A stretch of 64,000 bases of DNA from a virus. Its lineage: Duplodnaviria; Caudoviricetes. The notes below the pieces were generated by a model. That model worked only from the letters and a program-made list of their open reading frames with translations, searched no databases and was not told the DNA's origin. The DNA lies in IMG/VR virus record IMGVR_UViG_3300043781_000069, positions 445 to 64,444 of that record. The stretch is one strand, 5' to 3'. The number at the start of each line of letters is the position of its first letter. Positions within the stretch are counted from its first letter, which is position 1. The translations under genes were made by a program, and so were the position numbers. This document shows, piece after piece, positions 8,650 through 47,587 of this stretch.

Positions 8650-8729
8650 AAAGTGTACTAATTCCAATCAATAAAACGGGAATTAGTACACTTTCAATCT
8701 ATCATGAATGCCATCACACCGGCATTCAT
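8650..8729 (-). terminator. Twin hairpins downstream of rlmD-like 3' fragment
   Basis: AAAGTGTACTAATTCC/GGAATTAGTACACTTT (16-bp perfect stem) and ATGAATGCC/GGCATTCAT; degenerate copy at 47433-47515. Confidence 0.65.
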
Positions 8730-8732
8730 ACG

Positions 8733-8803
8733 CTATTTTTCTGTACGTTCGAGGACCGTTACGCTCTCAACATGCCACGAGCTTAATTGATTAATTACAC
8801 ATT
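8733..8803 (-). other. att junction 1: replacement 3' end of rlmD/rumA-type RNA methyltransferase gene plus element arm
   Basis: 8780-8733 reads SWHVESVTVLERTEK*, the HVE catalytic tail of TrmA/RlmD proteins; repeated at 47517-47587. Confidence 0.8.
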
Positions 8804-8981
8804 CTTGCTGAACCGCTTTATTCGGTAGCTTTTGTTATTTACAATGAATTAGCACAGTTATTAACTCGGGAACACAATGCCGGATTTCAGCTAAAATTCG
8901 ACATGAATTGTAGAGCTCAAATTCTAGTGGTTTGTGGGAACAAGCAAGTATCAAAAAATGGATTAGGTAATTTGTGGAAAA

Positions 8982-9380
8982 CTAGATTCCCATTTGATGC
9001 TTTATGATTTGTGTAATCACCCCAGCTGCTACATTAGAAACTAATGTCAGCGAAACACTAGAAAATTTGGACAAAATATTTTTAGTGTCTTTCCACACTC
9101 CGTCATCTCTGATGTTATCTAAGAATTTATGACCTTCATAAGTTAAGTTCCCTGGAGAAATAATAACAGGTTGATTATTTCCCCATTGTACATCACCAGT
9201 AATGTATTTTGCCTCCTTTAATTTCATCACTGTATAGGCAATTTGATTTCTATCATATTCACCATAATTACTAAGATTAGCTAACAGCTCATCTTCCAGA
9301 GGCCCTGTTATATTTTTACTTGACTCAATTGAAAGCATTGTATATCTCACCAAATCATGATTTAACTTCAAATTATTCAC
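8982..9380 (-). CDS. DUF2513-like protein
   Basis: KLNHDLVR..LTYEGHKFLDNIRDDGVWKDTK. Confidence 0.8.
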   Translation of the reverse strand: MNNLKLNHDLVRYTMLSIESSKNITGPLEDELLANLSNYGEYDRNQIAYTVMKLKEAKYITGDVQWGNNQPVIISPGNLTYEGHKFLDNIRDDGVWKDTKNILSKFSSVSLTLVSNVAAGVITQIIKHQMGI

Positions 9381-11351
9381 CTACTTTACCGCATACGAAA
9401 CCTGATCAGTAATATCACAAATTTCAGAAATCTTAGCAATGATAGCTAAAATCACTGTTGCTGAGAAGTTAGTTTCTACCACTGTTCCATTTTCCAATTT
9501 TTCTGGCGCATTCCCTGGCCTAAAGAGCATCCGGCTCAACTGGCGATTTTCTTTGATACGATCAAAGTTAAGGCTATCCTTATTCCAAATATCATTAAGG
9601 AAAGTAACTAGCATTTGACGCCAAGTTTTTACCGGATATTCATTTTCACTAATCGTGATTTGAACTGGTTTTTTACCAGTAACATCAGTGGTCTGATCAA
9701 TAGTATATTCACCAGTAACTTCTTCTTCATTAACCTCTTTGATATCAGGCATTGGGAAGATTTGGATTAACTCTTTCGTCAATTTTTCAGTTCGATCAAC
9801 GATAGAGTCTTTCCCCCACTTATCATATGTTTCTGCAACTTCCCGGGTAAGAGATACATTCGATTCCTTATAGAATTCTTTTTTCTCACTGTAAGGTTTG
9901 TTGCTCATTTCTTGGTTGTATTTCGTGAGAGTTAAATTTCCCAGCGTACCACCATATTGTTCCTTCACCTTGTCGGCATTAGTGACTTGAAGTCGCCATT
10001 CGGCATTGAGTCTTTGTGGCATAATGTGCTCAACCTGGGCATCATCAAAGTTTATTGTTTCCCTGGTCCGATATTCTTCTAGAACAACCAAAGATAATTT
10101 AGCCAGGTGATTCCTTTGATGATATAAATCTACTTCCATCAAGCCATTCGCTAATTTACGGTCATCAGGAAAATTAGCCTTGAGTAGTCTAAGTAGTCTG
10201 AGTCTTAAATTACCTGCTTCCTTGGATAGATCACATAGTCCTACAACAATTTTATTTAGCCCATTGGTTGGCATTTGGCATGCTTTCAACCGGAATAAAT
10301 AACTTTCTAGAATATGCGCCAGCTTATTGGCTTCCTCCTGATCGGTTTCACCTGTATCAACTAAATCCATTAACAGCATCAAATAAGGAAATACAACCTT
10401 GCTATCCATTACGTTGATATGCTCTAAGATTTTGTTAAAGACATCATCATCGGATTTATAATTTAGAATCTGATCATAGTAGGTAGCAAACTTAAACAGA
10501 TCAGCCAAAGCATCTTCCGAACTTAATCCTTGAGAGATGAAATAGTCCTTGTAGCTGTTATAAACACCATTTCTTTTAACAGACACATGCGTTTTTACAA
10601 CTAGATAATGTCGGATGAATTCAGCAAAAGTCTTAGTTGCAAACATCCGCTCTATCTTAACCCAGTATTTTTTATAAAGGTCCGACTGCTCCTGCGAATC
10701 TAGTTTCATTAAAAGAAAGTTTCGCACTAGATCCGAGGATGAGAGTGAAACCCCAGTTGAGTTTAAACTTTCAAAAATGACTTGCGGATTTTCTTCATTA
10801 GGATCACTACTTAACTCAATATAAACCATGTTGAAGTGATTCATTGCTTCATACAATTTAGAACTATCAATGTCTGAATTACTAATCAATTTTTGAAACA
10901 GTCGATAGTTATCGATGACTTTTGACGGCTGATCGTAATCAGCCATTTCATTCATAACAGATTCAAATGCTTCATAGTCATGCTCGACCGGCTTTAACTT
11001 AAGGTGATTATTATCATCAAGATATTTATTGGTTAAATATTCTTCCTCAATTTCAGCGTGGTCTTGTTTATCAGCATCTGATAATGCCTTTAGTAGCAGA
11101 GTCAAACTAGTTAAACGTTGCTGTCCATCAATGATGCGATAGATATGACTCATCTTATTTCCAGTTTCAGTAACATAAACAATCGCGCCTATAAAATGAT
11201 CAGTATCGTTTTGTGCAGCTATCGTTAAATCCTTAAAAAGCTGCTCACACTGTGCTTTATCCCATTCATAATTTCGCTGAAAAACAGGGATTTCAAAAAT
11301 AGTTTTCCCACTTCCTAGGAAATCAAACAGATGGATACTATCAGCTTTCAT
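9381..11351 (-). CDS. GmrSD-type (DUF262 + DUF1524 HNH) modification-dependent restriction protein with extra C-terminal domain
   Basis: IPVFQRNYEW, IIDGQQRLTS, FESLN; VEHIMPQ..LGNLTL..N..MSN. Confidence 0.88.
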   Translation of the reverse strand: MKADSIHLFDFLGSGKTIFEIPVFQRNYEWDKAQCEQLFKDLTIAAQNDTDHFIGAIVYVTETGNKMSHIYRIIDGQQRLTSLTLLLKALSDADKQDHAEIEEEYLTNKYLDDNNHLKLKPVEHDYEAFESVMNEMADYDQPSKVIDNYRLFQKLISNSDIDSSKLYEAMNHFNMVYIELSSDPNEENPQVIFESLNSTGVSLSSSDLVRNFLLMKLDSQEQSDLYKKYWVKIERMFATKTFAEFIRHYLVVKTHVSVKRNGVYNSYKDYFISQGLSSEDALADLFKFATYYDQILNYKSDDDVFNKILEHINVMDSKVVFPYLMLLMDLVDTGETDQEEANKLAHILESYLFRLKACQMPTNGLNKIVVGLCDLSKEAGNLRLRLLRLLKANFPDDRKLANGLMEVDLYHQRNHLAKLSLVVLEEYRTRETINFDDAQVEHIMPQRLNAEWRLQVTNADKVKEQYGGTLGNLTLTKYNQEMSNKPYSEKKEFYKESNVSLTREVAETYDKWGKDSIVDRTEKLTKELIQIFPMPDIKEVNEEEVTGEYTIDQTTDVTGKKPVQITISENEYPVKTWRQMLVTFLNDIWNKDSLNFDRIKENRQLSRMLFRPGNAPEKLENGTVVETNFSATVILAIIAKISEICDITDQVSYAVK

Positions 11352-11354
11352 CTA

Positions 11355-14300
11355 TTATTCCTCCCCAAATTCTCGTTGGACGACTTCCTGCAAAGTACCT
11401 TCTTGGGCATATTTAGCAGCATCAATTTGCTTAAAGTGCTTTTCCATCAAGGAATCCTTTATTTCTTTATCAAAGCCAAAAATATAGTTAGTAGCGATCA
11501 GATAAATAATCCGCGTTGGTGCAAATCCATAAACCTGATGCTCCATAATATGCCTAATTCGTTCATGATCATCAGGGAAAAGTTGCTTCATCTTCTCGCT
11601 TCGGAAGAGACGCTTTACAATCTCGGTGATATATAATCCAGATTTCATGTAAAGGTCAGCAAAAGTCTTATCTGGATCATCAAAGATCCCTGGATTATTT
11701 GTTTCAAGATCATCCACCATATGTTTAACAACTGCTTTTGGTGTAAAAATCTGATTGGTCTTTTGAGGTGGGATGTAATCGAAAATATCCTCTTTGCTAC
11801 TATCATCGAAATAGTTACTTAATTGCTCCATCTTCTCCAGGAATTGTTGAATAGAGTCGTTAAAGACATCCTTGTCAAATAAGTGACCATCAAAATGTTT
11901 CTTTTCATTAGTGTTGGCATCAACATAGTCACCACCATCACGTAAGAAACGGAATTGATCCTCAGTGATACCTGTCACTTCTTTGAACACATCGTCCTCA
12001 GTGTAGTCATCAAAATTCTGAAGTGTCAGATTTTTATCACCATAGGCCATGATAAAACTAGGAATTGTACGAGAAAAGCCACGCAGGTGTGCCCGAGCGT
12101 CCTCTTCAACGTTGTTCAACTTCTTTTGTTCTTCGTTCTTCTCAACACGTTCAACTACTTTAGCCGGAACATCTTCAATAGTCTGTTTTACGTGGTCTTG
12201 CACTCTTTTACCAAAATCATCCACAATATTTTGAACAGTGGTTTCGTATTTTACCTTGGCTTCGTTAAGTTCTGCTTGGTCACGTGCAGCATCTTGTTCC
12301 TTCTTATAATTAACTTCGGCTACTTTCTTCTGATCGTTAAGTTCGTCAGCAATCTTATTTAGAGCCTGTTCATTTTCTTTCTCAATCCGTTGCTGTTGCT
12401 TTTTAGCTTCTCTCTTTGACAAACCATAATCGTTAGCGACTCTGTTAACAACTTCTTTATTTAAGGAGTCATTAACCTTCTTAGAAATAGACTTAGCAGC
12501 TGACTTAAAATCAGTGCTATCCGTATCAGATACTGAATAAACCAATTGATTTCCTAAATCAGAGTAAACCTTATCACCAAAAAGCTCCTTCGATTTGCCA
12601 ATTACCCTTTCCTTAGGAATTTCAACTTCACCATCGTCATTAACAGAAACTTCTTCTGCACCTTCGATGGCATCTTCATCACTTTTCTTAGCTTTACCCT
12701 CTTTAGCAGCTACTAAGCCATTCAAAATTTCACGTACTTCTGCAGGTGCTGCAAAGATTCGAGAAATATTGGTAAATAGGAAATTACTCATAAAGCCACG
12801 TTTAACAACTTCTTGTGACTTTAGCTGACGAGGAATAGACATTACTTGCTTAGCATCAAGTTCAACCATCTTCCCATTGTCATCTTCACCGATAACTGGG
12901 AAAAAATTCAGTAGTTTACGAATGTTCGTTTCATGCTCAGCAGCGGTCCCTTTGCCATTTGAAGTTTCAGCCATTAAGTCATTAGCAAATTCGTCAAAGA
13001 TAGTCAGTGTCCGTGTTGGGTCAAAATCAAAAACATAGGCATTTTCTTTTTGTATTAACTCGCCATTACGCTCAAAAGTATATGGATTTTGTGCTCTAAA
13101 GGCAGCCTGCATGTACTCGGCGGGACTCTTCATACTGGAAAGCATCAAAACGGCCGACCAAGGTTTAACTGTTACACCAGTAGTCAGTTGGCCCACGCTT
13201 AAAGTGATAGTTTTATCGTATTCTTTAGTTGCTTTTTGAACTTTATCAAAGGCTTTCTCATTGGCCTTATCAAGTTGATCATCATTTAATTGGTCATCAT
13301 CAAGTTTGCCATCACCTGCCGCAAGAATAATATGATAATGTTTAAAAACAGGATGCTGCTTCAGTTTCTTTGCCAGAGCTTTAGCACTATCTACTCGGTT
13401 AAGCAGCCAAAAAGTATGTGCAAGTTCTGTTCTTAATTCTGGAGTTGAGAATGGGTATTTTTCTCCAGTAGTTAATGTATCAAGAAAATGATCCACTGCT
13501 TTATCGTAAACAAATTTATCATTCTGCGTTTTGAAAAATTCATTTAAATCAAATGCTGGATCTGCTTTGTCACCATTGTCTAAATCAACACCCTGTTTTA
13601 AAGTGTCTGCTATCATTTCTGATAATTGGTAAGTAAACATGTTTAAGCGTGGCATTACGGCATATGGATTGCTACCACCTTCAGCATCTTCATTCCAATC
13701 GGCTTTGGCTTGTTGTTCATCAGCATAAGACCAGTTGTAGATTTGATCTGCAGCAAATTTACCTTTGGCTAGGGCCTTAAACGGTGTACCAGTAAGATGA
13801 AGTGTATACTTACGTTTGATTTTGTCGAATGCCTTATCCGTCTTATAAGTATCCACACCTTCATGGGCCTCATCAATGATCAATAAATCCCAGTTAAGAT
13901 CTTCAATCCACTTTAATTTGTCGTATTCTCCACCAAAGTAAACCGAACCTTTTAACCCTTGAAGACTCTCAAAAACAACCTGACCATAATCATTGCCATC
14001 AGAAATGGAATCAATAAATTCCTGACGAGAAAGTACTGGCTTATCTTTTAAGGCATCCGTTTCACTAACGAATTTAAGATTAGTTTGCCAGGCAATAAAT
14101 TTGTCAAAATCATCAAACCAGGAGTTTGCAATACTAGGCCGATTTGTAACTACCAGTACATTCTGCATCTGCATCTTACGGATTAAGTCATAAGTAGTGA
14201 GTGTCTTACCAAACCGTGGCTTAGCATTCCACAAGAATTCGCTGCCTTCACCATTTTTAAGAAAGTAAGCAATTGTTTGATCAACTGCCTTTTGCTGTTC

Positions 14301-14699
14301 TTTACGAAGCTCATACTGAACATGCTTATCATTACCTTGAACATTCCCATAATCACGGTCAGCAAATTCGTGAAAGTAATGATGTGAAGTTGGACCATCA
14401 ATGTGAAACCACTCTGTCCTAGGTTTCCGTTCAATCTGCTTTTTCTGGGTTAAGTAATCATGAAAATCATGGTCGGTAAAGGTTTCATCGGACCCATCTT
14501 CATATCGAGCATTGCCACGCCATAACAATTTAACTTTGGCATCAACGGTATGGCTCTGTTGCTTAATTCGATCTTCAACAGATTGTGATGCAGTGTAACC
14601 TATCTTAGTCCATCCATTATGTGAAATATCGTTAGGAGTGGTGTAGGCATAAATCATTGGAATGATTCGTTTGAATGATTTAATTTTAGGCATTGCCAT
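11355..14699 (-). CDS. Restriction subunit: GIY-YIG/T5orf172 nuclease + SF2 helicase + coiled coil + degenerate MTase-like C-terminal domain
   Basis: IYAY..KIGYT..VEDRIKQ; AKPRFGKT, IIDEAH, LTGTP, QAAFRAQ; QIFTPKAVVKHMVDDL..FADLYMKSGLY. Confidence 0.8.
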   Translation of the reverse strand: MAMPKIKSFKRIIPMIYAYTTPNDISHNGWTKIGYTASQSVEDRIKQQSHTVDAKVKLLWRGNARYEDGSDETFTDHDFHDYLTQKKQIERKPRTEWFHIDGPTSHHYFHEFADRDYGNVQGNDKHVQYELRKEQQKAVDQTIAYFLKNGEGSEFLWNAKPRFGKTLTTYDLIRKMQMQNVLVVTNRPSIANSWFDDFDKFIAWQTNLKFVSETDALKDKPVLSRQEFIDSISDGNDYGQVVFESLQGLKGSVYFGGEYDKLKWIEDLNWDLLIIDEAHEGVDTYKTDKAFDKIKRKYTLHLTGTPFKALAKGKFAADQIYNWSYADEQQAKADWNEDAEGGSNPYAVMPRLNMFTYQLSEMIADTLKQGVDLDNGDKADPAFDLNEFFKTQNDKFVYDKAVDHFLDTLTTGEKYPFSTPELRTELAHTFWLLNRVDSAKALAKKLKQHPVFKHYHIILAAGDGKLDDDQLNDDQLDKANEKAFDKVQKATKEYDKTITLSVGQLTTGVTVKPWSAVLMLSSMKSPAEYMQAAFRAQNPYTFERNGELIQKENAYVFDFDPTRTLTIFDEFANDLMAETSNGKGTAAEHETNIRKLLNFFPVIGEDDNGKMVELDAKQVMSIPRQLKSQEVVKRGFMSNFLFTNISRIFAAPAEVREILNGLVAAKEGKAKKSDEDAIEGAEEVSVNDDGEVEIPKERVIGKSKELFGDKVYSDLGNQLVYSVSDTDSTDFKSAAKSISKKVNDSLNKEVVNRVANDYGLSKREAKKQQQRIEKENEQALNKIADELNDQKKVAEVNYKKEQDAARDQAELNEAKVKYETTVQNIVDDFGKRVQDHVKQTIEDVPAKVVERVEKNEEQKKLNNVEEDARAHLRGFSRTIPSFIMAYGDKNLTLQNFDDYTEDDVFKEVTGITEDQFRFLRDGGDYVDANTNEKKHFDGHLFDKDVFNDSIQQFLEKMEQLSNYFDDSSKEDIFDYIPPQKTNQIFTPKAVVKHMVDDLETNNPGIFDDPDKTFADLYMKSGLYITEIVKRLFRSEKMKQLFPDDHERIRHIMEHQVYGFAPTRIIYLIATNYIFGFDKEIKDSLMEKHFKQIDAAKYAQEGTLQEVVQREFGEE

Positions 14700-14702
14700 T
14701 GT

Positions 14703-15755
14703 CTAGTCCATCTCCTTTACTTTGGTTTCAATAAAATTGATTTCTTCCTGGTTTAATCCATATTTCTTGTACAGTTGCTGATCAATATCATGAACGGATT
14801 TTGACCAATCTATATCAGAATGTTGGGTAAAGTCTTGCAATGGAATATTAACCCAAGTGCGTTTCTTATTATCCTGCGTTACTTTCAGCGTACCTAGCAT
14901 CGCTCGTGCAAATTTCGACTTAATATATTTCATAGCCGCTTTCGTACAATTTATATCTTGAAAGTTACCAATTGTAATAAATGTTTGAGTTCCCCCGATT
15001 AGGGGTTCCCCGATTAGGGGTTCCCCGATTAGGGGTGTGGTTAAAACCTCTCCAAGTGCACCGCTACCATTTGATTTAGGAACTAAAATTTTGTAATTTT
15101 CCAGATTATCCGGTCCCTTAACATACTTACTCTTGATCCATTTTAACGTTCTTCGATTATTTTGCCGACCGTATAATCCTACATATTGCTCTGAACTACC
15201 AGAAGGCTTTACATTTTGAAAAATATCACCTAATTTATCAAAAATGTTAGTAGTAATATCAAATTTATGTCCCTTACTTAATCGCGACCCTATATCTGGA
15301 AAATCGTCATGTAATTTTTGGGTAAGCTTATAGCTTTCTGGCGCATAAATAAGTTCACTAAATGATTTAAAATTGCTTGTTTTTACTTTTTTTAGTATAG
15401 AATTTAATTCTGCATAGGGTGTAAATGTACCAATTGCGCCAAAACTCGAATCTACATCTCGATATGTAACACAAACTCCACCTTTAATATCTGTATTACT
15501 AAAAACTTTACTACTATCCTGCTCGAAAAAAAGTACTTTTAAATGAGGATCTTTTAACATCTTCTCATTCCATTTTTTGGGCGTTTTTCCTGCATTAGAT
15601 AAGAATTTAGCGGGTGTTATTAGCTCAACCTTTTTTCCAATTTTATAGGCCTGATCCATAAAATATGGAAAAATCTGTTTATCACTAGTTCCCTCAACTT
15701 CTTCTTGATATGGTGGATTACCAATTACAACATCAAATTTAAATTCTTTACTCAT
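14703..15755 (-). CDS. Eco57I-like adenine methyltransferase catalytic half plus target-recognition domain
   Basis: FDVVIGNPPY (motif IV) at N-terminus; no motif I. Confidence 0.85.
   Translation of the reverse strand: MSKEFKFDVVIGNPPYQEEVEGTSDKQIFPYFMDQAYKIGKKVELITPAKFLSNAGKTPKKWNEKMLKDPHLKVLFFEQDSSKVFSNTDIKGGVCVTYRDVDSSFGAIGTFTPYAELNSILKKVKTSNFKSFSELIYAPESYKLTQKLHDDFPDIGSRLSKGHKFDITTNIFDKLGDIFQNVKPSGSSEQYVGLYGRQNNRRTLKWIKSKYVKGPDNLENYKILVPKSNGSGALGEVLTTPLIGEPLIGEPLIGGTQTFITIGNFQDINCTKAAMKYIKSKFARAMLGTLKVTQDNKKRTWVNIPLQDFTQHSDIDWSKSVHDIDQQLYKKYGLNQEEINFIETKVKEMD
14993..15036. repeat. In-frame 15-bp tandem repeat x3 (PLIGE)
   Basis: CCCCGATTAGGGGTT twice plus a 14-bp third copy. Confidence 0.95.
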
Positions 15756-15758
15756 TTT

Positions 15759-16496
15759 CTATCCCATCCTAAATACTTTAGTAATAATAATTTTCTGCTT
15801 ACTCGTATCATCACTATTTTCTAAGTCATCAAATAGACTTAATTGACCTTCATTAGCGCCTATATCATTTGCATCACTATTATTGAACAATGATTTAAAA
15901 GTAAAAATCTCTCGTTCAACTTTTGATCCAGACGGAATCCAGTTGCTAAAAGTAATTAACTTTCCATCATCATTTCTATAGGTAAGTGTATTACCCTGGA
16001 CGATATTTAAATTGATTACATATTTTGCTGATTTATAAATATCAGTTTTTGAACTCAAACTTTTCTGCATAAAGGCTTGATAATGATTGACAAAAATATT
16101 CATCATTGCTTCTTTTGATCGAGCTAAATTATCTTTCAACAATTCAATAGCGTAAATGCTCATTAATGACCATAATGCGTTGCTTTTCCAAGTTGTTTTA
16201 TTAGAAATTTGGTCTACATAGTTCAGCTTCTGATGTAGGATTTCTTTCAAGAAAGCACCCTCACCTGCACTAGGTTCAAAAAAAGTGGCATGCAGATCAT
16301 GAAGCTTTTCTTGAATAGCCGGTTCAGACAGCATCTTTTTCACCATCCATTTAGGGGTAAAAACTTCACCATGATGTTGAACTCGTTCCTTAGACTTAAT
16401 TAGGTGACCATCATCACCTATTGCTTTTAATTCAAATTTTTTATGATCGGTTTCAAATTTTTGATCATCGAAAAGGCTTATTTCTTCCTTGCTCAT
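15759..16496 (-). CDS. Methyltransferase N-terminal (SAM-binding) half
   Basis: HGEVFTPKWMV, FFEPSAGEGAF (motif I), IYAIEL, IVQGNTL; no NPPY. Confidence 0.85.
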   Translation of the reverse strand: MSKEEISLFDDQKFETDHKKFELKAIGDDGHLIKSKERVQHHGEVFTPKWMVKKMLSEPAIQEKLHDLHATFFEPSAGEGAFLKEILHQKLNYVDQISNKTTWKSNALWSLMSIYAIELLKDNLARSKEAMMNIFVNHYQAFMQKSLSSKTDIYKSAKYVINLNIVQGNTLTYRNDDGKLITFSNWIPSGSKVEREIFTFKSLFNNSDANDIGANEGQLSLFDDLENSDDTSKQKIIITKVFRMG

Positions 16497-16539
16497 TTTA
16501 AATAAATGTCACCTCTATCCTCCTGTATTATTCCTTCTG

Positions 16540-16758
16540 TTACTTTCGTACGATCTCCATAATGTCACTAATATCGCAGTCTAAGGCCTTACAAACCTTT
16601 AGTAATACCTCAATCGTAACATTACCATTCCTACCCAACTTAGCAATTGAAGCGGCACTAACTCCACTAGCCTGTTGTAGATCTTTCTTTTTCATGCCAC
16701 GATCAATTAATAGCTTCCATAATTTGTTGTAACTGATGCTTAAGTTTTCGTTATTCAT
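16540..16758 (-). CDS. Xre/Cro-C1 HTH regulator (possible R-M controller)
   Basis: ISYNKLWKLLIDRGMKKKDL..LLKVCKALDCDISDIME. Confidence 0.9.
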   Translation of the reverse strand: MNNENLSISYNKLWKLLIDRGMKKKDLQQASGVSAASIAKLGRNGNVTIEVLLKVCKALDCDISDIMEIVRK

Positions 16759-16769
16759 GATTACTTCCT

Positions 16770-19382
16770 CTAAATAAAAATTTCTGGAACGTTTATTTCA
16801 ATTTCCTTAGTCTCACTAACAGCATCAAGATCGTTCGCTTTTAAAATATTCTTGGAGACAAAGTAATTATTATCGGTTTGAATGATAAATTCATCTTTAT
16901 TGTCTTCTATATATTCTGAGGATTCTCTGGAATAACCATTCTGCTGTAACCAAATCCGTAAGTCACTATCTGTTCCATACTCCATGAAACGATACCAGTC
17001 ATTCTGAGGTGGCATTCCACTCTTAGTTAACTCCTGGGTAACTTTCAAGAAATATTTACCTAATACAAACTGAAGATTTTGCAATCTTTTCATCACTAAA
17101 TTAATGGTTATAGTCTCCCAGTCAATATTAGGGGTATTCTCATGGTATTGCCTTACCCTATTAAGAAATCTTGTATCTCCACGCTCAGGATCACGGATTT
17201 GAATTGCAAAGTCGCAAATCCGTTGCAGGCTGTACCCACTCATCCAAAGTAAGGCTATTTTAGCGTCATCCTCGATGACCTTATCTTGAGTTTCCTTGTC
17301 TTGTTTTGACTTAACAAAGTCGGATTCATAAATAGCCCAGTTAAATATTTCTGATAGTTTGAGTAAAAAAGCTTTGGCTTCTGGCCACCTCAATTTTTCC
17401 CCATCATGAATATTAGGATATCCTTTAATATTTTCCTGACTAATCTTGTTTCTAAGACTTTCAGACTGATCAGAAGAGAAGTTAATATCATCCTCTAATT
17501 CGTCAACATATCGTTCTTGTAAGGATTGTAAAATTTTTCGTTCTTCTTTGTAGGTTATATGTTTTGCTAAATGGGTTCTAACTACTCCATGATGATGATT
17601 CCGTAATTCCTTGACATAAAGTAATGATAATTTACGAATTAAATCATAGTTCTTATCTTTTTCAATGTTATCTAAACGCACATCGCCTTTCTCTAGGCTC
17701 TTCTTAATTGCTGCCGCTTGCTTAGGCTTAATAACATCAACAGATAACTTAGCTTTTTTTAGTCTGTTATTCATCCTAGATAAATAAGCAGCACGGTTGC
17801 TATGCGAATTCGCTGTATCGCCAGTAATTAGAAAGACATTTCCTAGCATGGAGTGACCTAACCTACCCACTCGACCAATTAAGTTCAAGAAGTCTAATTG
17901 ACTGAGCGTCCTTTTTCCGTTTTGCAGCGTAGTAACGAAAATATTATCAGCCGGCAAATTTACTCCCTCCAGTAGGGTGCTGGTGCAGAAAATCAGCTTT
18001 AAGATTCCTTGCCGACAGGCTTCCTCGATTCTAATGCGAACATCAACCGGCAATTCTCCAGTGTGGAAGGCTATTCCTTTTCTAACTAGTTTTACCAAGA
18101 TGTATTTAGGGTGAATTTTACGTGAAATATAATCAGCTAACTCTATCAACCTTGGATCGTTACTTTCTTCCATTGAACGACTAACAACCACAGCATCTGA
18201 AATAGCATTTACTTTTGAACCGTAATAAACCAAATTGCAATTACTATTCCCTAAAACTCTCATCATCTTCCGAATAATATCTGGTACTGACGGAGTTTCC
18301 TTAAATGTACCTATCGGAATAGTATTTTGATTCAAATCATCATATATTTCTGCTTTATTAGCGGAGCGATCAAAGATGATTTTCACCTGGGTTACTGGGG
18401 ATTCGACAATGCGAAGGCCATCATTCGATGCGGCTGTTTGTACTAACTTTTTAAATATTCCTGGATTTGGAATCAATGGTGAGGCAAAGGTTACCTTCGG
18501 TCGATTTTTCCATGCACTAACCCTGTCAAATATTTCATAGTAAAAGACACTACGCGAACTTGCTTCTGTAACTTTTTGAGACTCATCAATAAACAGGTGT
18601 ATTAACCGTGCTTCTGAATATTGTATTAAAAGGGCTAATAGGCGTTCAGGAGTCATTACGCAAATATAGCTTCCCTCGTAATCTAATCTGTACTCTTCAG
18701 GATGAGAAATGACTCGATATTGTTTTTCGCCTAATTTTGCCCCTAAATCCTTAATAAGCTGAACCTTTACTTCGGTAATAAGTGCTTTGCTTGGTACAGT
18801 GATCGCAAAGTTGCCTACGACACCCTCCTTCACTTGAAGCTCAATATACTTCTCAATTAAAAAGGTCTTCCCCATCGATGTTGGAGCTGAAAAACTAGTA
18901 AGTTCATTGCTCAAAGACTTAAAAATTATATCTTGCTTACCGATAAACGACTTACTTTCTTCTCCAGGAATCTGGCGTTTCTCTTTTTGATAGTTTACCA
19001 CGGCTTCGTTCCATAACTGCTCAATTGTTGGAACTAGCGTATAGCTTTGTCCTTGACGAGGCAAAAAGTTGTTAAAGCTGGTCAAAACTTCATTAGTAAT
19101 CAGTGCAACCTCGGGGTCGTCGGGATACATTTTGGATAGAGTAGCAACGATTTTCAAGGCAATATTTTTTTGCCTACTGTCTCCCTTTTTATTGATTGAT
19201 TTTGCTAGCAGATCGGCGAAGCGTAGAAGATCATGCTTCTGCTTACCTGTTAACTTCCAATCTAGATGAAATAGCCAATAGGTGTACCGTTTTGATAAAG
19301 TACCCACTAATTTGTGTAAGTAATCATCGTTTTTCAAATAATCATAAAGGTATTCACCCAATTTTTTCCCTTGGTTTGGCAT
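16770..19382 (-). CDS. hamB: Hachiman HamB-like SF2 (Ski2-type) helicase
   Basis: SAPTSMGKT, MTPER, IDESQK, CTSTLLEGVNLP, NLIGRVGR; follows DUF1837-like gene. Confidence 0.8.
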   Translation of the reverse strand: MPNQGKKLGEYLYDYLKNDDYLHKLVGTLSKRYTYWLFHLDWKLTGKQKHDLLRFADLLAKSINKKGDSRQKNIALKIVATLSKMYPDDPEVALITNEVLTSFNNFLPRQGQSYTLVPTIEQLWNEAVVNYQKEKRQIPGEESKSFIGKQDIIFKSLSNELTSFSAPTSMGKTFLIEKYIELQVKEGVVGNFAITVPSKALITEVKVQLIKDLGAKLGEKQYRVISHPEEYRLDYEGSYICVMTPERLLALLIQYSEARLIHLFIDESQKVTEASSRSVFYYEIFDRVSAWKNRPKVTFASPLIPNPGIFKKLVQTAASNDGLRIVESPVTQVKIIFDRSANKAEIYDDLNQNTIPIGTFKETPSVPDIIRKMMRVLGNSNCNLVYYGSKVNAISDAVVVSRSMEESNDPRLIELADYISRKIHPKYILVKLVRKGIAFHTGELPVDVRIRIEEACRQGILKLIFCTSTLLEGVNLPADNIFVTTLQNGKRTLSQLDFLNLIGRVGRLGHSMLGNVFLITGDTANSHSNRAAYLSRMNNRLKKAKLSVDVIKPKQAAAIKKSLEKGDVRLDNIEKDKNYDLIRKLSLLYVKELRNHHHGVVRTHLAKHITYKEERKILQSLQERYVDELEDDINFSSDQSESLRNKISQENIKGYPNIHDGEKLRWPEAKAFLLKLSEIFNWAIYESDFVKSKQDKETQDKVIEDDAKIALLWMSGYSLQRICDFAIQIRDPERGDTRFLNRVRQYHENTPNIDWETITINLVMKRLQNLQFVLGKYFLKVTQELTKSGMPPQNDWYRFMEYGTDSDLRIWLQQNGYSRESSEYIEDNKDEFIIQTDNNYFVSKNILKANDLDAVSETKEIEINVPEIFI

Positions 19383-19386
19383 GCTC

Positions 19387-21075: not shown

Positions 21076-21082
21076 AATTTTT

Positions 21083-35883: not shown

Positions 35884-35911
35884 TTGCGAAGAACTGAAAG
35901 GAGTTGATGCC

Positions 35912-37854: not shown

Positions 37855-37873
37855 TTTTTAGGAGGACTTATCA

Positions 37874-39052: not shown

Positions 39053-39068
39053 AAAGGATTGATGAAAT

Positions 39069-39347
39069 GTGGCTGCTATTACTTTGGCCGAAGCAAAAGC
39101 CTACCTGAGGGTGGATAACACTGTTGAGGATGACCTAATTACGAAGTTAATTGGATCGGCAACAGCTACAGTCGAGAATGTACTTCGTCAACCACTATCC
39201 GCATTCGACCCCCTCCCCGATGATATTCATACCGCAATTCTTTATACCGTGGCTTACCTTTATGAATATCGGGAAACAGCTGATTTTGATGCCATGATTA
39301 AATTTCTTCGGGCCATCTTGTCCCCTTACCGGAAGGAGGAATTTTAA
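39069..39347 (+). CDS. Head-tail connector (HK97 gp6-like)
   Basis: ITLAEAKAYLRVD..EDDLI..AILYTVAYLYEYRE. Confidence 0.9.
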   Translation: MAAITLAEAKAYLRVDNTVEDDLITKLIGSATATVENVLRQPLSAFDPLPDDIHTAILYTVAYLYEYRETADFDAMIKFLRAILSPYRKEEF

Positions 39348-39730
39348 TGCAACAGCAAAACGAACGTATCAGTAAGATTGCTGATATTGGTGAGCTAGAT
39401 CGCCGCATTACGCTGACGAAAAAGAAATATGTCGGCGAAAATCCTAATACTGGAATGTCGATGTACAAGGATGTTCGCCTGGGCGATGTCTGGGCAAAAG
39501 TTTCTGCCCTGCACGGTCAAGAGTATTACACGGCGGTTAGTGTGAAGTTGGAAAAACAATTGTCCTTTATTATACGATATCGCGATGATGTTGACGAAGA
39601 AACCAACATTTGGTTTGAAGGCCATGGCTATAACATTGGTTTTATTGATGACGTCAAGTATAACCACGAGTATATGGAGATCAAGGCTGAATATTCGAGA
39701 GGAGTTGATAATCCGAATGAAGACAACTAG
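39347..39730 (+). CDS. Head-closure / head-tail adaptor (SPP1 gp16-like)
   Basis: IGELDRRITL..VWAKVSALHGQEY..FIIRYR..IWFEG..YNI. Confidence 0.85.
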   Translation: MQQQNERISKIADIGELDRRITLTKKKYVGENPNTGMSMYKDVRLGDVWAKVSALHGQEYYTAVSVKLEKQLSFIIRYRDDVDEETNIWFEGHGYNIGFIDDVKYNHEYMEIKAEYSRGVDNPNEDN

Positions 39731-40127
39731 TTTAACGGTAATCAATACTTGTTTTGGAGCTATTGGAGCCTTTCTTGGCTGGTTTCTAGGAGGACTCGAC
39801 GGTTTCTTATATGTTCTCCTGATTTTTATGGTCGTGGACTACATCACTGGAGTCCTTTGCGCAGTTAATGAGCATAAGCTCTCCAGCGAGATTGGCTTTC
39901 GTGGGCTTACGCGCAAAGTATTAATCCTATTGTTAGTTGGCATTGCACATTGCCTTGATATTTACCTATTAAAGAATGGTTCAGCAATCCGTACCGCTAC
40001 TATTTTCTTCTATATCTCTAATGAAGGTATTTCTCTATTAGAAAATATAAGCCGTCTGGGGCTACCCGTACCTGATAAATTGAAAAGTGTTCTCCAACAA
40101 TTGCACGATAAGGACGATAATAACTAA
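39717..40127 (+). CDS. Phage holin (toxin-secretion/phage lysis family)
   Basis: LGWFLGGLD..VVDYITG..LSSEIGFRG..FYISNEGISLLEN..GLPVP. Confidence 0.9.
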   Translation: MKTTSLTVINTCFGAIGAFLGWFLGGLDGFLYVLLIFMVVDYITGVLCAVNEHKLSSEIGFRGLTRKVLILLLVGIAHCLDIYLLKNGSAIRTATIFFYISNEGISLLENISRLGLPVPDKLKSVLQQLHDKDDNN

Positions 40128-44159: not shown

Positions 44160-44434
44160 TTGTAGTTTTTTAATTTTGGCAGATTGAATTAAATTATCTT
44201 GAATCAGTCGCCAAGTGTTTCTGGAAATTAGTGTGCGCGTAACCATGAACGCATCAGCTAATTCACTAGCAGTGGCTTGTCCGTGTTGTTCCAGATAGAT
44301 TAATTTTCCCACTCACGCATTGAGAAACCAGTTGTGGTCAGCCCTTGCATTAACATCTGGTATGCTTGTTTCTGAATAGCCTGTAGGGTTGCTAAGCTCT
44401 CAAACAGGATCTTAGTTTGCCGATGATTTAGCAT
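44160..44434 (-). pseudogene. MarR-family regulator fragment
   Basis: MLNHRQTKILF..GFSMREWE / LIYLEQHGQATASELADAFMVTRTLISR after a frameshift. Confidence 0.6.
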
Positions 44435-44445
44435 ATAATATCATC

Positions 44446-47319
44446 CTATTCTTTGCGCTGCCGCTTAGTCATTCCAAAGAGCCCTAACAAACTACTCATG
44501 GCTAATAGTAATAAGCCACTCAGCGTCATGTGTTGTTGATCAGTTTCACCAGTTTGAGGCAACCGTTGATCCACAAAATTAGTAGCCGCTGCTTGACCAG
44601 CCTGAACCGGCTTTGTTGGCGTCGCTGGTTGACTTGGGTTAACTGGTTTTGCTGGCGTCGTTGGTTGAATTGGATTAACTTGTTTTGCTGGCGTCGTTGG
44701 TTGAATTGGATTAACTGGTTTTGTTGGCGCATCCTTGGCATAAACCACCGTGAAATCAAGATCACTGGAGTCACCACTCACAGTTTGTGCCCCAATTTCA
44801 GCCTGGTCTGGCGTATAACCCTTAATAACTGGACTAGTTACTGCCGCAAAGCTTTGATCAGCTGACCAAGACCCATAGGTCTTTTCACCTGTAACCGTAT
44901 CAGTTGAAACTTGACGCGTAAATTCAACCGGCTTGGCCACATAATCATCATGAGCTGTCGTACCATCTTTGTAGACGTAATGGATAGTTTCATTAATCGT
45001 CTTGCTTTCAGTTGTAATAGTTGGCGCATTCTTGGCATAAACCACCGTGAAATCAAGATCACTGGAGTCACCACTCACAGTTTGTGCCCCAATTTCAGCC
45101 TGGTCTGGCGTATAACCCTTAATAACTGGACTAGTTACTGCCGCAAAGCTTTGATCTGCTGACCAAGACCCATAGGTCTTTTCACCTGTCACCGCATCAG
45201 TTGAGACTTCACGCGTAAATTCAACCGGCTTGGCCACATAATCATCATGAGCTGTCGTACCATCTTTGTAGACGTAATGGATAGTTTCATTAATCGTCTT
45301 GCTTTCAGTTGTAATAGTTGGCGCATTCTTGGCATAAACCACCGTGAAGTCAAGATCACTGGAGTCACCACTCACAGTTTGTGCCCCAATTTCAGCCTGG
45401 TCTGGCGTATAACCCTTAATAACTGGACTAGTTACTGCCGCAAAGCTTTGATCTGCTGACCAAGACCCATAGGTCTTTTCACCTGTAACCGTATCAGTTG
45501 AAACTTGACGCGTAAAGGTCACTTGAGCGGTGTTATCAGCAGGAGTTTGATTACCAGCGCCTTGATAATGAATAGTCTCTGTAAGGGTTTTGGCCTCTGT
45601 AGACTGAATGTTTTGATGCTTCAAGTGAACCGTGAAATTCTGATCAGTTGTGTCATCATTGTCGAACGTCAAATCTGCTGGATAGCCATCGGTGACCAAC
45701 TCATACCCTTGTTTCTTATAATCGGCAATGCTACCGCTGGTACTATAGCTGGATTTTGAACCCGTTGTTCCTGAGATTGAGTCCGTCTTTAAAGTTTTTC
45801 CGGTCGTATCATCAACGTAGCTGACACTACCTTTTTGCTTATCTGCTGTATAGGTGATCGTTGTATCTGTACCAATATCAGAAGGTGTTGGTGGAATATA
45901 GCCCTTAGTACGATCATCGGGATTAACTGGCACCAAAGGAGTCCCCATATGATCTTCAGGTGTATAGCCAGGAATAAAAGCAATAACCGGATAATCAGGC
46001 ACCGATGAATCAGCAATCTTAGTAGGGTCACTAGGATCATTGGGATAAATAATTGATGTTGTCGAGCCATTAGGATTAGAGACGACCCAGTTGCCGAGCT
46101 TGCTGTAAACATACTTAATATCAGAGGTTTGTGGAATATATGGATTTAAAATTCCGTATGTCGCAGAACCTAGTGGATACATTATCGCAGAACCTGAGGG
46201 CTTTATACCTGTCCATGTTTTGAGAACTTTTCCATTTTGAGCAATTGAAGCAGACATTGTTCCATCTGAACCAGTCTGAGTGTAAGTAATAACTACTCCA
46301 TTATGAAAGTTTTTAACATAACTAGCACCAATCTCTCCGTATGGTGACATAACGCCATTTGAATTAGAAGGTGCAGTAGCATAGTAACCATTTACAACAT
46401 TTACGTCGCTGGTCGTATAATTTTGGCCAACTAACCCTTTTTGTGTATAAGGAGCAACTGGATTACCATTACTGTCGGTGATTTGCTTGCCATCTTTATC
46501 AACGTAATAGGTTGTTTGTGTGATCAATTTGGGTACAAAATAAGAAAGTGTACTGTAGTAGTTACTATCAAATTTACTAGCAGTATATTTAGTAACAAAA
46601 CTATTGTTTGAACTTTGAACCATTTCAAAATAAGCATCATTATAGTAGGTAGTGCTATCAAATACAGCAGATGTTACCTGAGTATTTTGATTTAAAGTGT
46701 ATTGTTTTAAAACTTTATTTAATGCCGATAATTCCGTTACATAAACAATTCCATCGCCCGTTCGATTAGTTGAAAAAACAATCTGGTTTCCACCATATTT
46801 TGCTTGCAACCATTCATAACTGTAATGAGAGTTATCTGGATCAATCCACATTCCAGATGGATAATCTGGATCACTAACTGAGAAACCCGTATTGGTAACT
46901 GAACCTGCCAATACCTTTCTACCGTAGTTTTGAGCAAACTTAGTTGTAACTATTGCACTATTTTTAGAAACATTAGTGGCTATCTGCGCTACACTCTGTT
47001 TTCCACCTGCACTGGTTACATCAGCCTTTGCTGCACTGCTACTACTTGCACTAGTCGTTTCGGCCTTTGCTGCACTGCTACTACTTGCACTAGTCGTTTC
47101 GGCCTTTGCTGCACTGCTACTACTTGCACTAGTCGTTTCGGCCTTTGCTGCACTGCTTGAGGTGCTGGTGGCTGTCACATCAGCTGACACTGGCTGGCTG
47201 GTAACTAGCATCCCTAATCCCAGCGAAAATAATGAAATCCCCATGACAGCCCAATTCTTACCGCATTTATATAATTTATAATGCGTTTTAGTCTCTCCAA
47301 AATAATTATTCCTTAACAT
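44446..47319 (-). CDS. Cell-wall-anchored mucus-binding (MucBP/Mub) adhesin
   Basis: KLYKCGKNW (KxYKxGKxW) signal, Ser/Ala repeats, Mub-type repeats, Pro-rich spacer, LPQTG + TM + basic tail. Confidence 0.9.
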   Translation of the reverse strand: MLRNNYFGETKTHYKLYKCGKNWAVMGISLFSLGLGMLVTSQPVSADVTATSTSSSAAKAETTSASSSSAAKAETTSASSSSAAKAETTSASSSSAAKADVTSAGGKQSVAQIATNVSKNSAIVTTKFAQNYGRKVLAGSVTNTGFSVSDPDYPSGMWIDPDNSHYSYEWLQAKYGGNQIVFSTNRTGDGIVYVTELSALNKVLKQYTLNQNTQVTSAVFDSTTYYNDAYFEMVQSSNNSFVTKYTASKFDSNYYSTLSYFVPKLITQTTYYVDKDGKQITDSNGNPVAPYTQKGLVGQNYTTSDVNVVNGYYATAPSNSNGVMSPYGEIGASYVKNFHNGVVITYTQTGSDGTMSASIAQNGKVLKTWTGIKPSGSAIMYPLGSATYGILNPYIPQTSDIKYVYSKLGNWVVSNPNGSTTSIIYPNDPSDPTKIADSSVPDYPVIAFIPGYTPEDHMGTPLVPVNPDDRTKGYIPPTPSDIGTDTTITYTADKQKGSVSYVDDTTGKTLKTDSISGTTGSKSSYSTSGSIADYKKQGYELVTDGYPADLTFDNDDTTDQNFTVHLKHQNIQSTEAKTLTETIHYQGAGNQTPADNTAQVTFTRQVSTDTVTGEKTYGSWSADQSFAAVTSPVIKGYTPDQAEIGAQTVSGDSSDLDFTVVYAKNAPTITTESKTINETIHYVYKDGTTAHDDYVAKPVEFTREVSTDAVTGEKTYGSWSADQSFAAVTSPVIKGYTPDQAEIGAQTVSGDSSDLDFTVVYAKNAPTITTESKTINETIHYVYKDGTTAHDDYVAKPVEFTRQVSTDTVTGEKTYGSWSADQSFAAVTSPVIKGYTPDQAEIGAQTVSGDSSDLDFTVVYAKDAPTKPVNPIQPTTPAKQVNPIQPTTPAKPVNPSQPATPTKPVQAGQAAATNFVDQRLPQTGETDQQHMTLSGLLLLAMSSLLGLFGMTKRQRKE
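44724..45515. repeat. 297-bp near-identical intragenic repeats (about 2.7 copies, Mub B2-type)
   Basis: TTGGCGCAT.CTTGGCATAAACCACCGTGAA recurs at about 44724, 45021 and 45318. Confidence 0.9.
47024..47157. repeat. 39-bp tandem repeat x3.4 (AETTSASSSSAAK)
   Basis: GCCTTTGCTGCACTGCTACTACTTGCACTAGTCGTTTCG repeated exactly. Confidence 0.95.
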
Positions 47320-47516
47320 AAAAGAACCGACCTTTTTCACTTTTTTAGATAAAATCATGCCAAAATCCCATCATTAAATCAAATGGTTTCAAGAAACTAC
47401 ATTAATAATAACACTCAAGGCATAAAAAGCAAAAAGTGTACTAATTCCAATCGTTTGGGAAGGAAAATGCACACTTTCAATCTATCTAGAAATACCGTCA
47501 TACCGGCGTTTAGCGG

Positions 47517-47587
47517 CTATTTTTCTGTACGTTCAAGGACGGTAACGCTCTCAACATGCCACGAGCTGATGTTATCAATTACACATT
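47517..47587 (-). other. att junction 2: replacement 3' end of rlmD/rumA-type gene plus element 3 arm
   Basis: 47564-47517 reads SWHVESVTVLERTEK*; three synonymous differences from 8733-8780; shared AATTACACATT at the same offset. Confidence 0.8.

Follow-up and report, generated by a model that had tools for sequence, protein, structure and literature searches.

The 64,000-nucleotide stretch of DNA analysed here (the window) probably represents a tandem array of three related, phage-derived elements lodged in the 3' end of a Lactobacillus rlmD (rumA) gene, each of which rebuilt the target as it entered, so that the older elements were displaced away from the gene. In addition to the window itself we examined the corresponding loci of related genomes, above all that of G001, a near-identical Lactobacillus MAG with an array in an independent 1.55-Mb contig, which matches the window at 99.94% identity over 670-8775 and at 100% over 1-678. 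From left to right the window contains the following features:

1..3396: distal flank, with a membrane protein fragment (1-501, minus strand), a RelB-like gene (727-1149), a hypothetical gene (1537-2214, minus strand) and an isochorismatase-family gene (2381-2941, minus strand)
3397..8426, plus strand: element 1 remnant, with an SNF2 C-terminal piece, a 155-aa gene, HNH and small terminase genes (3502-5547)
5616-6208, minus strand: YafQ/Phd toxin-antitoxin pair of element 1 (Pfam)
6589-7239 and 7582-8197: IS30-type fragment and ISL3-type fragments, respectively, of element 1 (Pfam)
8427..8732, minus strand: right-end non-coding module of element 1, made up of a conserved block (8427-8650) and two post-stop hairpins (8651-8732)
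8733..8774, minus strand: orphan rlmD tail from element 1 (HVESVTVLERTEK*), the G001 tail at 74293 being identical
8775..8816, minus strand: left-end arm (P arm) of element 2, with its ..TCGTGG end at the crossover; includes AATGTGTAATT (minus-strand reading)
8982..20787, minus strand: defence arm of element 2, with DUF2513, a GmrSD-type restriction enzyme, a type IIG-like restriction-modification set and Hachiman (Pfam, PADLOC)
16770-19382 and 19387-20787, minus strand: HamB and HamA, respectively, of this Hachiman system (PADLOC)
21032..40127, plus strand: phage-like core of element 2 (Pfam)
40555-40842, plus strand: SHOCT protein of element 2
40812-42533, plus strand: large serine recombinase 1, intact, 573 aa
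42526-44109, plus strand: large serine recombinase 2, broken into four reading frames
44446..47358, minus strand: LPXTG mucus-binding adhesin of 970 aa (KxYKxGKxW signal, MucBP_2 and three Muc_B2 repeats), carried as cargo at the right end of element 2
47425..47558, minus strand: hairpins (47425-47516) and orphan rlmD tail from element 2 (47517-47558)
47559..47599, minus strand: left-end arm (P arm) of element 3
47888..58105: defence arm of element 3, with AbiH, Vsr, Z1 helicase, NgoFVII-type endonuclease, AAA_13/PDC-S06 ATPase and two further genes on the minus strand, and HTH and Dcm methylase genes on the plus strand (Pfam, PADLOC)
58532..64000, plus strand: start of the element 3 core, with sigma-like, DUF2800, SSB, PolA and DUF7768 genes, cut by the contig end

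Two repeats with orphan rlmD tails

A preliminary description of this DNA had drawn attention to two repeats of ~150 bp, each with a minus-strand tail fragment, and both were recovered by a repeat search and by BLAST. In the former 8707-8803 pairs with 47491-47587 at 84% over 97 nt (family D12), and comparison with the related locus in the latter widens copy 1 to 8427-8817 and copy 2 to 47423-47587. On the minus strand copy 1 encodes ..NQLSSWHVESVTVLERTEK, with the stop codon at 8733-8735, and copy 2 encodes ..DNISSWHVESVTVLERTEK, with the stop codon at 47517-47519, both tails being HVESVTVLERTEK*. The three synonymous differences that had been noticed between them (GTA/GTT, ACG/ACC, CTC/CTT) are borne out as the full set over the 42-nt tails (8733-8774 versus 47517-47558). 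On the plus-strand side both are preceded by an arm ending AATTACACATT (8793-8803 and 47577-47587). Hairpins had likewise been proposed behind the fragments and indeed fold after both stop codons, strongly in copy 1 (-42.3 kcal/mol, z -8.2, 0 of 200 shuffles as good) and more weakly in copy 2 (-21.2 kcal/mol, z -2.25, 6 of 200 shuffles as good). Every junction that we examined breaks at one point, a shared CATG preceded by the rlmD body or else by a conserved element arm with TCGTGG at its end.

Arrays in related genomes

The record (64,444 bp) ends within element 3, and hence the rlmD end of this element is not visible; the window contains no rlmD body, and no other viral contig extends it. 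An intact rlmD, such as had been predicted on the minus strand to the right of the window, was found at the head of the array in G001, the nearest relative. Here a 458-aa RlmD, residues 9-455 of which align with S. pneumoniae SP_1029, ends ..FPQTPHVESVTVLERTEK*, the same peptide as the window tails, and in this one relative the postulated match of the tail to the C-terminus of the host RlmD is thus seen. From rlmD outward the G001 array consists of element X (40,135 bp), element Y (39,635 bp), element Z (a 14,419-bp remnant) and the element 1 remnant; these four elements are parted by three orphan tails, and all four tail copies lie on one strand. The region 47425..47558 of the window matches the DNA downstream of the intact G001 rlmD at 97.7% identity over 216 nt, and the left end of Z, with AbiH, is an 84.5% relative of the left end of element 3. 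The arm common to element 2 and Y adjoins different tails in the window strain and in G001.

Two genomes of other species reveal the distal end of such arrays. In G014 an rlmD with an element-type tail is followed by 37.8 kb, after which an arm meets the native tail HVEAVTVLEKK* and, beyond it, a host gene; in G015 an element-type tail separates two small elements, and the native tail closes the array. Thus, in both the far junction joins the native tail HVEAV.VLEKK* to host DNA and the inner junctions carry element-type tails. The comparison with empty sites that had been suggested could be made in element-free genomes of other species, in which rlmD has the native HVEAV.VLEKK* end, with unrelated DNA and a beta-lactamase-like gene beyond it. 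Arrays built alike occur in G001, G015 and G333.

The element-type tail is present in 22 of the 401 species genomes searched, and adjoins an rlmD body in 21 of 30 pattern loci. These rlmD bodies are strongly divergent, yet the tail and the next 100-350 bp stay 72-92% identical, a pattern showing that this segment travels with the element across divergent rlmD genes. The right-end non-coding module of element 1 is similarly conserved (84% mean column identity across 12 loci of 11 genomes) and recurs behind the element-type tails of other genomes at 72-100% identity. The P arm of element 2 is kept in 8 of the 30 pattern loci, in 7 loci of 5 relatives and in 6 viral contigs. Taken together, the G001 array, the native far tails of G014 and G015 and the travelling of the tail with the element indicate that each element supplies the catalytic HVE end of the gene and rebuilds its target, as had been surmised from the window.

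Gene content of the elements

The distal flank, which is either host DNA or the debris of an older element, is 99.9-100% identical to the G001 DNA beyond its array, where it is broken by an additional transposase gene near window position 678. The native rlmD tail, expected in this flank beyond element 1, was not found there. The element 1 remnant is 99.94% identical to its G001 counterpart, and its segment 3397-5547 corresponds to 29945-32096 of element 2 at 79-85% identity.

Element 2 is 38,784 bp in size and decayed. Its defence arm is 98-100% identical to that of Y over the first 9-10 kb, declining to ~85% at the inner end. The core runs in the order sigma-like, DUF2800 nuclease, Enc34-type SSB, PolA, D5-type primase (split), VRR-NUC, SNF2 (split), HNH, TerS (truncated), ParB-methylase (split), TerL (split), portal, ClpP protease, capsid, connector, head completion and holin, which is the order of Streptococcus phage Javan105 minus the ~10-kb tail module of the latter. 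Pfam searches recovered no tail genes in the element 2 core, and the head completion and holin genes are direct neighbours in element 2, in X and Y, and in the elements of G014 and G333. The two recombinases are paralogues with 34% identity, and both combine Resolvase, Recombinase and Zn_ribbon_recom domains with the RVST serine motif; recombinase 2 is intact, as a 525-aa protein, in X, Y and Z. Element 3 is visible over 16.4 kb, of which 58469-63911 is 75-87% identical to 21022-26348 of element 2.

The adhesin of element 2 is 98-99.7% identical to the gene next to rlmD within X, directly after the intact rlmD of G001, and the rest of element 2 is only ~75-97% identical to X, bar one 1-kb window at 100%. 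This would be compatible with the adhesin and the tail at 47517-47558 being ordinary host DNA downstream of rlmD, with element 2 residing in a separate target further on. We consider this very improbable: the left junctions of X and element 2 each join an element arm to another rlmD tail, the adhesin is preceded by a tail and hairpins of the element type, Y and the G014 and G333 elements fill the same slot with other cargo, and element-free species have unrelated DNA and the beta-lactamase-like gene after rlmD, with no such adhesin.

The join between elements 2 and 3 rests on assembly, and could in principle be a chimera formed at 47433-47587 via the ~130-nt tail-and-hairpin repeat, in which case the window would comprise a two-member array and an unlinked element. 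The record is an assembled contig; in each of four public runs the short-read contigs break off at 47554-47575, alternative neighbours occur on either side of the repeat in the likely source-like run, and in G001 the adhesin and tail lead into the rlmD body with no element. Nevertheless, arrays of the same build are found in the independent G001 contig, in G015 and in G333; the junction 8774/8775 cannot be a k-mer chimera, because the G001 junctions share only 9-10-nt runs there; and a contig from run X15 joins such a tail to an element-3-like arm with another left neighbour. Hence, a chimeric origin of the join appears very unlikely, and we retain the three-member array. The loose contig ends at 47558/9 run into rlmD bodies that differ from that of G001 and so probably belong to other organisms. 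No excised-circle joint was seen in the assembled contigs of the public runs, which break at the repeat.

Proposed integration and order of arrival

The model that these observations suggest gives each element, toward its right end, two large serine recombinases and then cargo, hairpin terminators and a 42-nt replacement rlmD end. Recombination, presumably catalysed by recombinases 1 and 2, would attach the tail of the incoming element to the rlmD body immediately ahead of the His-Val-Glu codons, and because the body is joined to an element-supplied tail the gene would remain whole. The earlier tail would become an orphan against the left arm of the newcomer. Given that the rebuilt site would consist of the unchanged rlmD arm and a tail mimicking the native one, the next element could reuse it, and such reuse would displace the older members away from rlmD. 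As far as is known, canonical phage large serine integrases integrate only between the phage site and the bacterial site, and without a directionality factor a hybrid site of this kind, i.e. an rlmD arm with an element tail, would be expected to stay inert; we therefore infer its probable reuse from the arrays.

The structure of an array by itself fits proximal and distal insertion alike. The distal member is common to the window strain and G001 and their proximal members differ, a distribution consistent with insertion beside rlmD, and it is on this comparison of two strains that a time-ordered array can be proposed. Insertion may always have been proximal to rlmD, with the buried members trapped and decaying as their defence genes were kept. 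The gradient of decay away from the gene that had been proposed is seen in the window, where element 1 is an IS-ridden remnant, eight genes of element 2 are split or truncated (all intact in X and Y) and six of six comparable genes in the visible part of element 3 are full length relative to Y. It holds in G001 too; G015 departs from it, having remnants of 5 and 10 kb as its proximal members.

Alternatively, the array might be real and its order no record of arrival, with entry at any junction or reshuffling by homologous recombination, gene conversion or block excision. Element 2 is a patchwork, in which the left 6 kb and 37775-38775 match Y, and 40775-41775 matches X, at 100% identity in each case. 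Between Y and the G014 element the identity is 95-99.7% over 8 kb and 77-83% elsewhere. Relative to the Y type, an AbiH-type member is distal in G001 and proximal in the window. The AbiH-type ends are merely 84.5% identical, however, and thus need not represent one arrival. Moreover, the gene-body arm occurs only at the rlmD-proximal site, all inner junctions being formed by an element arm and a tail, and the distal remnant is the shared and most decayed member in both strains. We accordingly regard the loss of the arrival order as rather unlikely and favor stepwise insertion beside rlmD, with an order that mosaic recombination among the members has blurred.

Implications

The present findings extend the rum/rlmD hotspot, mainly described in streptococci, to the Lactobacillaceae, and offer a natural series of site renewal with the native tail last, element tails between and the intact gene first. 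The stacked members add differing defences, namely Hachiman, GmrSD, type II, IIG and III restriction, AbiH and PDC-S06, and the locus thereby acts as a growing defence island in which phage genes decay and defence genes stay intact. That copies in different species are tail-less and otherwise intact raises the question of how the elements travel. One possibility, which we offer tentatively, is that they are tail-less, capsid-forming serine-recombinase satellites derived from Phi-m46.1-like siphophages, which cross Lactobacillaceae species on helper-phage tails and stack last-in, first-out at rlmD. If so, only the rlmD-proximal member would keep a normal pair of excision sites, and the buried members would hence be trapped, lose their phage genes and be kept as defence islands. 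The conserved target and tail module might serve as a marker for such arrays and are a candidate site-specific integration system for lactobacilli.

Comparison with known systems

Genomic islands with tyrosine integrases in tRNA and tmRNA genes also restore the 3' end of their target, and tandem islands can form at the rebuilt site. They use another recombinase class, and the target here is a protein-coding end with a catalytic residue.

Integration and accretion at the rum locus are already known from Streptococcus (PMC4288039, PMC5053989, PMC13651849). As far as the published account describes them, prophages of the Phi-m46.1 group integrate in the 3' end of rum, with an 18-bp attB core covering the same H-V-E codons, and tailed particles are reported (PMC4288039). 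The elements described here resemble this group in the gene, the codons, the intactness of the gene and the use of serine recombinases, and share its backbone order of PolA, primase, SNF2, terminase, portal, ClpP, capsid, holin and recombinases. Recombinase 1 is 43% identical to the Javan105 integrase, and for PolA the identity to streptococcal members such as Javan422, Javan630 and phi-SsuHCJ31_comEC is 56-58%, gut-metagenome phages providing its best matches in the phage collection, at up to 62%. The Phi-m46.1 group as described consists of complete siphoviruses, Javan105 having its ~10-kb tail module, with drug-resistance genes as cargo; the Lactobacillaceae elements, judged from their genes, lack a tail and carry defence systems and an adhesin, and unlike in that group their supplied tail is accompanied by the conserved 100-350-bp non-coding module.

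The tandem accretion of ICEs and prophages at rum in Streptococcus suis (PMC5053989, PMC13651849) likewise has several elements lodged next to one another in the 3' end of this gene, an att site separating each from the next, and serine recombinases acting at rum. Those arrays, in the descriptions available, are mostly unlike pairs (ICE and phage) in either order, whereas those studied here have up to four members of one phage-derived family, the older ones being remnants. The composite SCC/SCCmec arrays at rlmH with CcrAB (PMC11470126) are comparable in their large serine recombinase pair (here a putative one), the intact 3' end of an rRNA methyltransferase gene as target, the tandem cassettes between repeated att sites and the enrichment of anti-phage defences. 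SCC, according to that source, targets rlmH (orfX) and lacks capsid and replication genes; our elements target rlmD and encode capsid and terminase.

Capsid-forming PICIs are described as encoding terminase, HNH, portal, protease, capsid and connectors with no tail (bioRxiv 10.1101/2022.09.08.507074), and near-identical copies are reported in different species (10.1101/2025.02.11.637232). The elements share with them their own capsid and packaging genes, the lack of tail genes and near-identical copies across species, and differ from them, as so described, in their size of 38-40 kb, a full PolA/primase replication module, a holin and lysin, serine recombinases and the rlmD target. PICIs, which depend on helper-phage tails, are also small, with the integrase at the left end, and the serine recombinases here lie at the right end. 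What sets the present arrays apart from those at rum and rlmH is the host family, the paired large serine recombinases, the defence-gene arms and the loss of the whole tail module in intact interspecies copies.

Tandem elements and their boundary repeats

A repeat search within the window aligned positions 8707-8803 with 47491-47587 at 84% identity over 97 nt, and comparison with a related locus extended the similarity to 8427-8817 and 47423-47587. Each copy bears a minus-strand coding fragment ending, before the stop codon, in ..NQLSSWHVESVTVLERTEK at copy 1 and ..DNISSWHVESVTVLERTEK at copy 2. The 42-nt tails in these fragments, which correspond to the end of rlmD (rumA) (8733-8774 and 47517-47558), show three differences, all synonymous. 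Hairpins follow both stop codons: that of copy 1 folds at -42.3 kcal/mol (z -8.2), and the weaker one of copy 2 at -21.2 kcal/mol (z -2.25; equalled by 6 of 200 shuffles). On its opposite side each tail adjoins the left end of an element (hereafter the arm), which carries an 11-mer recognized in the preliminary description. Thus the two repeats with their coding fragments, synonymous differences, hairpins and arm motifs, all first noted from the sequence alone, are real. We used Pfam and PADLOC scans to determine the gene content of the three units that these repeats delimit:

Units of the window and their content
Left of 8774: element 1 remnant, with an SNF2 piece, HNH and small terminase, then a toxin-antitoxin pair and IS fragments
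8775-47558: element 2, 38,784 bp
Element 2, minus strand: defence arm with a GmrSD-type enzyme, a IIG-like restriction-modification set and Hachiman
Element 2, plus strand: phage-like core with sigma-like protein, PolA, primase, SNF2, terminase, portal, ClpP protease, capsid, connector, head-completion protein and holin
Element 2, right end, in order after the core: SHOCT protein, two large serine recombinases, minus-strand LPXTG adhesin, hairpins, tail
47559 onward: element 3, with a new arm, AbiH, Vsr, Z1 helicase, NgoFVII-type endonuclease, Dcm methylase and an AAA_13/PDC-S06 protein
Element 3, core: same as the element 2 core, cut at PolA/DUF7768

The element 1 remnant is 79-85% identical to 29945-32096. 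The repeat search also recovered a 36-nt sequence present thrice at 89% identity (25890-25925, 40555-40590 and 63354-63389): two copies follow the PolA genes of elements 2 and 3, and one opens the SHOCT gene that immediately precedes recombinase 1.

An intact rlmD at the head of the array

As the window is approximately the whole 64,444-bp record, there is no sequence to its right. Scanning species genomes with a sequence pattern led to one locus, carried by the Lactobacillus sp. MAG G001, which is 99.94% identical to window 670-8775 and 100% identical to window 1-678. Here the array is headed by an intact rlmD with a matching C-terminus, of the kind that had been expected to the right of the window: it codes for a 458-aa RlmD ending in ..VDMFPQTPHVESVTVLERTEK before the stop codon, residues 9-455 of which align with the Streptococcus pneumoniae RlmCD-type enzyme SP_1029, whose structure has been solved. 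We take the glutamate of the His-Val-Glu motif in RlmD and SP_1029 to be the catalytic base of the family, which the glutamine variant of SP_1029 fits; this is the residue that the tail of the element must supply. Two deposited sequences of the S. pneumoniae homologue (PDB: 5xj1 and 5zq0) differ by this glutamate-to-glutamine change.

Order of the G001 array after rlmD
1: adhesin as in the window, with element X, 40,135 bp
2: orphan tail (a tail detached from the rlmD body), then element Y, 39,635 bp
3: orphan tail, then remnant Z, 14,419 bp
4: orphan tail identical to window copy 1, then the same element 1 remnant
5: presumed host DNA

The G001 contig is self-closing by homology, and its four tail copies lie on one strand, with none recovered by a reversed-pattern control. 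A gene for a 392-aa transposase is inserted in G001 (L011, 12260-13438) at a point where the window is uninterrupted (~678), the two being otherwise 99.9-100% identical in this region. The adhesin, which is the right-end cargo of element 2 (44446-47358, minus strand), is a mucus-binding LPXTG protein of 970 aa with three 99-aa Muc_B2 repeats; its counterpart in element X is 98-99.7% identical, above most of the element. In element Y the corresponding cargo slot (L001, 10410-13276) is taken by an NAD-salvage set: genes for a nicotinate phosphoribosyltransferase, for an isochorismatase-family (nicotinamidase-like) protein and for a Nudix regulator of the NrtR-like type. An isochorismatase gene in the window (2381-2941) was considered as a trace of an older element and rejected, being only 33% identical to the cargo gene of Y.

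Junctions and the native tail

All boundaries share one CATG, to the left of which stands either an rlmD body (..FPQTP) or a conserved arm ending in TCGTGG. The arms of elements 2 and Y are identical, and are joined to the element 1 tail in the window and to the different tail of Z (HVECVTVLKRVGK, then stop) in G001. At the two G001 junctions the common runs are only 9-10 nt long; hence, the first junction of the window arose by site-specific joining rather than in the assembly. For the second junction, assembled contigs from public runs all stop at the repeat, and from 47558/9 their loose ends enter rlmD bodies unlike that of G001; none of these contigs crosses 47400-47700 from the adhesin side. 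The link from the adhesin to element 3 is accordingly putative, coming from the window's own assembly. No end-to-end joint of an element appeared in the public-run contigs, which weigh neither for nor against excision. A metagenome scan with a 27-nt rlmD arm recovered two contigs from unrelated organisms, and a 45-mer taken at the right end of the window had no match among the viral contigs scanned.

RlmD was matched in 39 of 41 genomes (G001 and 40 relatives). Several of the closest orthologues terminate in a native tail resembling HVEAV.VLEKK, followed by unrelated DNA, and in four species the gene has an element-type (ERTEK-type) tail, with DNA that matches window 8427-8732 by homology downstream of it. 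By manual count, about 20 of the first 27 nucleotides agree between native and element tails. Searches with the element arm detected junctions in 5 of 61 genomes (G001 and 60 relatives). In one of these, from another Lactobacillaceae species (G014), 37.8 kb separate rlmD from the arm, which is joined to HVEAVTVLEKK and its stop codon, then to a host beta-lactamase-like gene. In a further species (G015), rlmD bears an element tail, an arm with an element-type tail follows 5 kb on, and 10.3 kb beyond this inner junction an arm with the native tail adjoins the same host gene as in G014. This series, with the native tail last and element tails between, is what a replacement-end model would predict, and supports the original proposal that each element supplies a new end to rlmD.

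The tail and the right-end block

The element-type tail is present in 22 of 401 Lactobacillaceae species genomes (control matches, 0), five of which contain 2-4 copies. Among the 30 tail loci, 21 follow an rlmD body, 8 an element arm and 1 lies at a contig edge. The rlmD bodies ahead of the tails are strongly divergent (..PVDQFPQTT, ..PVDMFPMTT and others), and the same two hairpins occur downstream of every locus except L054, weakly so at L037. Beyond the hairpins there is usually a conserved block whose identity to the window is 72-92%, with 84% mean column identity across 12 loci. As judged from these patterns, the tail belongs to the element. The arm-tail junction was also found in six IMG/VR contigs, with three element-type tails (one frameshifted) and three native-type tails.

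Both orphan tails of the window are still intact. The frameshifted one, an orphan in contig L077, has lost one base, so that its reading frame runs on to a stop farther along; such decay would be expected where a tail is not in use.

The block beyond the terminator (window 8375-8650, minus sense; also in L035, L038-L040, L043, L047-L049, L053, L055 and L058) is non-coding and exceeds the coding tail in conservation, some 85 of its columns being almost invariant. Within it lie two direct repeats with the pattern GTCGAGT-N-ATGTCC, and some copies end with a promoter-like TTGCAG..TATAAT. Elements X and 2 are without the block and have the adhesin in its place. A consensus fold retained the terminator hairpin, with little covariation elsewhere (double change in 5 of 74 pairs), and an Rfam search of 8150-9000 returned only a chance microRNA match below threshold.

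Decay and order of the members

In element 2, eight genes that are intact in X and Y are split or truncated, namely those for primase, SNF2, TerS, ParB-methylase, a 206-aa protein, TerL, recombinase 2 and DUF7768. The 12-kb defence arm and the adhesin are unbroken, so the breaks are not due to sequencing error at large. By position, 8982-20787 and the adhesin contain no broken genes, and 21032-44109 contains the eight broken phage and recombinase genes; it seems that the cargo has been selectively retained while the element itself is dead.

Of the G001 members, X is intact, Y is split in a single gene (HamA), and only remnants are left of Z and element 1; hence, in both strains the members farther from rlmD are the more decayed. 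The preliminary description had read such a gradient as a time-ordered array in which newcomers push older elements away from the gene. The gradient stands in the window and G001, and fails in G015, where the proximal members are remnants. The distal remnant is common to the window and G001, and the proximal members differ. Element 2 alternates between stretches resembling Y and stretches resembling X, and Y is 95-99.7% identical to the G014 element over 8 kb and 77-83% elsewhere. An AbiH-type left end is distal to Y in G001 and proximal to element 2 in the window, and a native orphan tail looked for beyond element 1 was missing. This mosaicism, the position of the AbiH end, the G015 remnants and the missing native tail cut against a simple chronicle. 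Array structure alone cannot tell the entry point of a newcomer; proximal entry is favored because the gene-body arm is present only at the rlmD-proximal site.

Relationship to known systems

The published integration site of Phi-m46.1 is the 3' end of rum, where its 18-bp core spans these H-V-E codons, and many elements are described as using rum as a hotspot (PMC4288039). The Streptococcus suis rum locus likewise hosts Phi-m46.1-like prophages, ICEs with serine recombinases, and tandem elements in which three att sites occur (PMC5053989; PMC13651849). Recombinase 1 is 43% identical to an integrase of Javan105, a Streptococcus phage of the Phi-m46.1 group, and PolA is 56-62% identical to phage-collection records (streptococcal members, 56-58%). 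Javan105 has the same gene order with an additional tail module of ~10 kb. As read from gene order, this module is missing in elements 2 and X, where head completion leads directly into the holin, and in Y and the elements of G014 and a further species (G333), where head completion is followed by the holin and a GH25/CW_7 lysin. The reference genes are full length in 21 of 21 cases in the G014 element and 20 of 21 in that of G333 (sigma-like gene unmatched). Such tail-less, intact copies common to different species recall the capsid-forming PICIs (bioRxiv 10.1101/2022.09.08.507074); the present elements differ in being 38-40 kb long, with their own PolA for replication and serine recombinases.

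Among the papers listed by a literature search on rlmD, serine integrases, prophages and Lactobacillus, none was relevant to this locus in lactobacilli as judged by title or abstract, an absence that is not proof. Taken as a whole, the finding made at the outset holds in substance, and the relatives support it well. It is a known kind of rlmD/rum system in a new form, and the mechanism is not new. Outside phages, its closest analogue is provided by the defence-rich SCC arrays with CcrAB at rlmH (PMC11470126).
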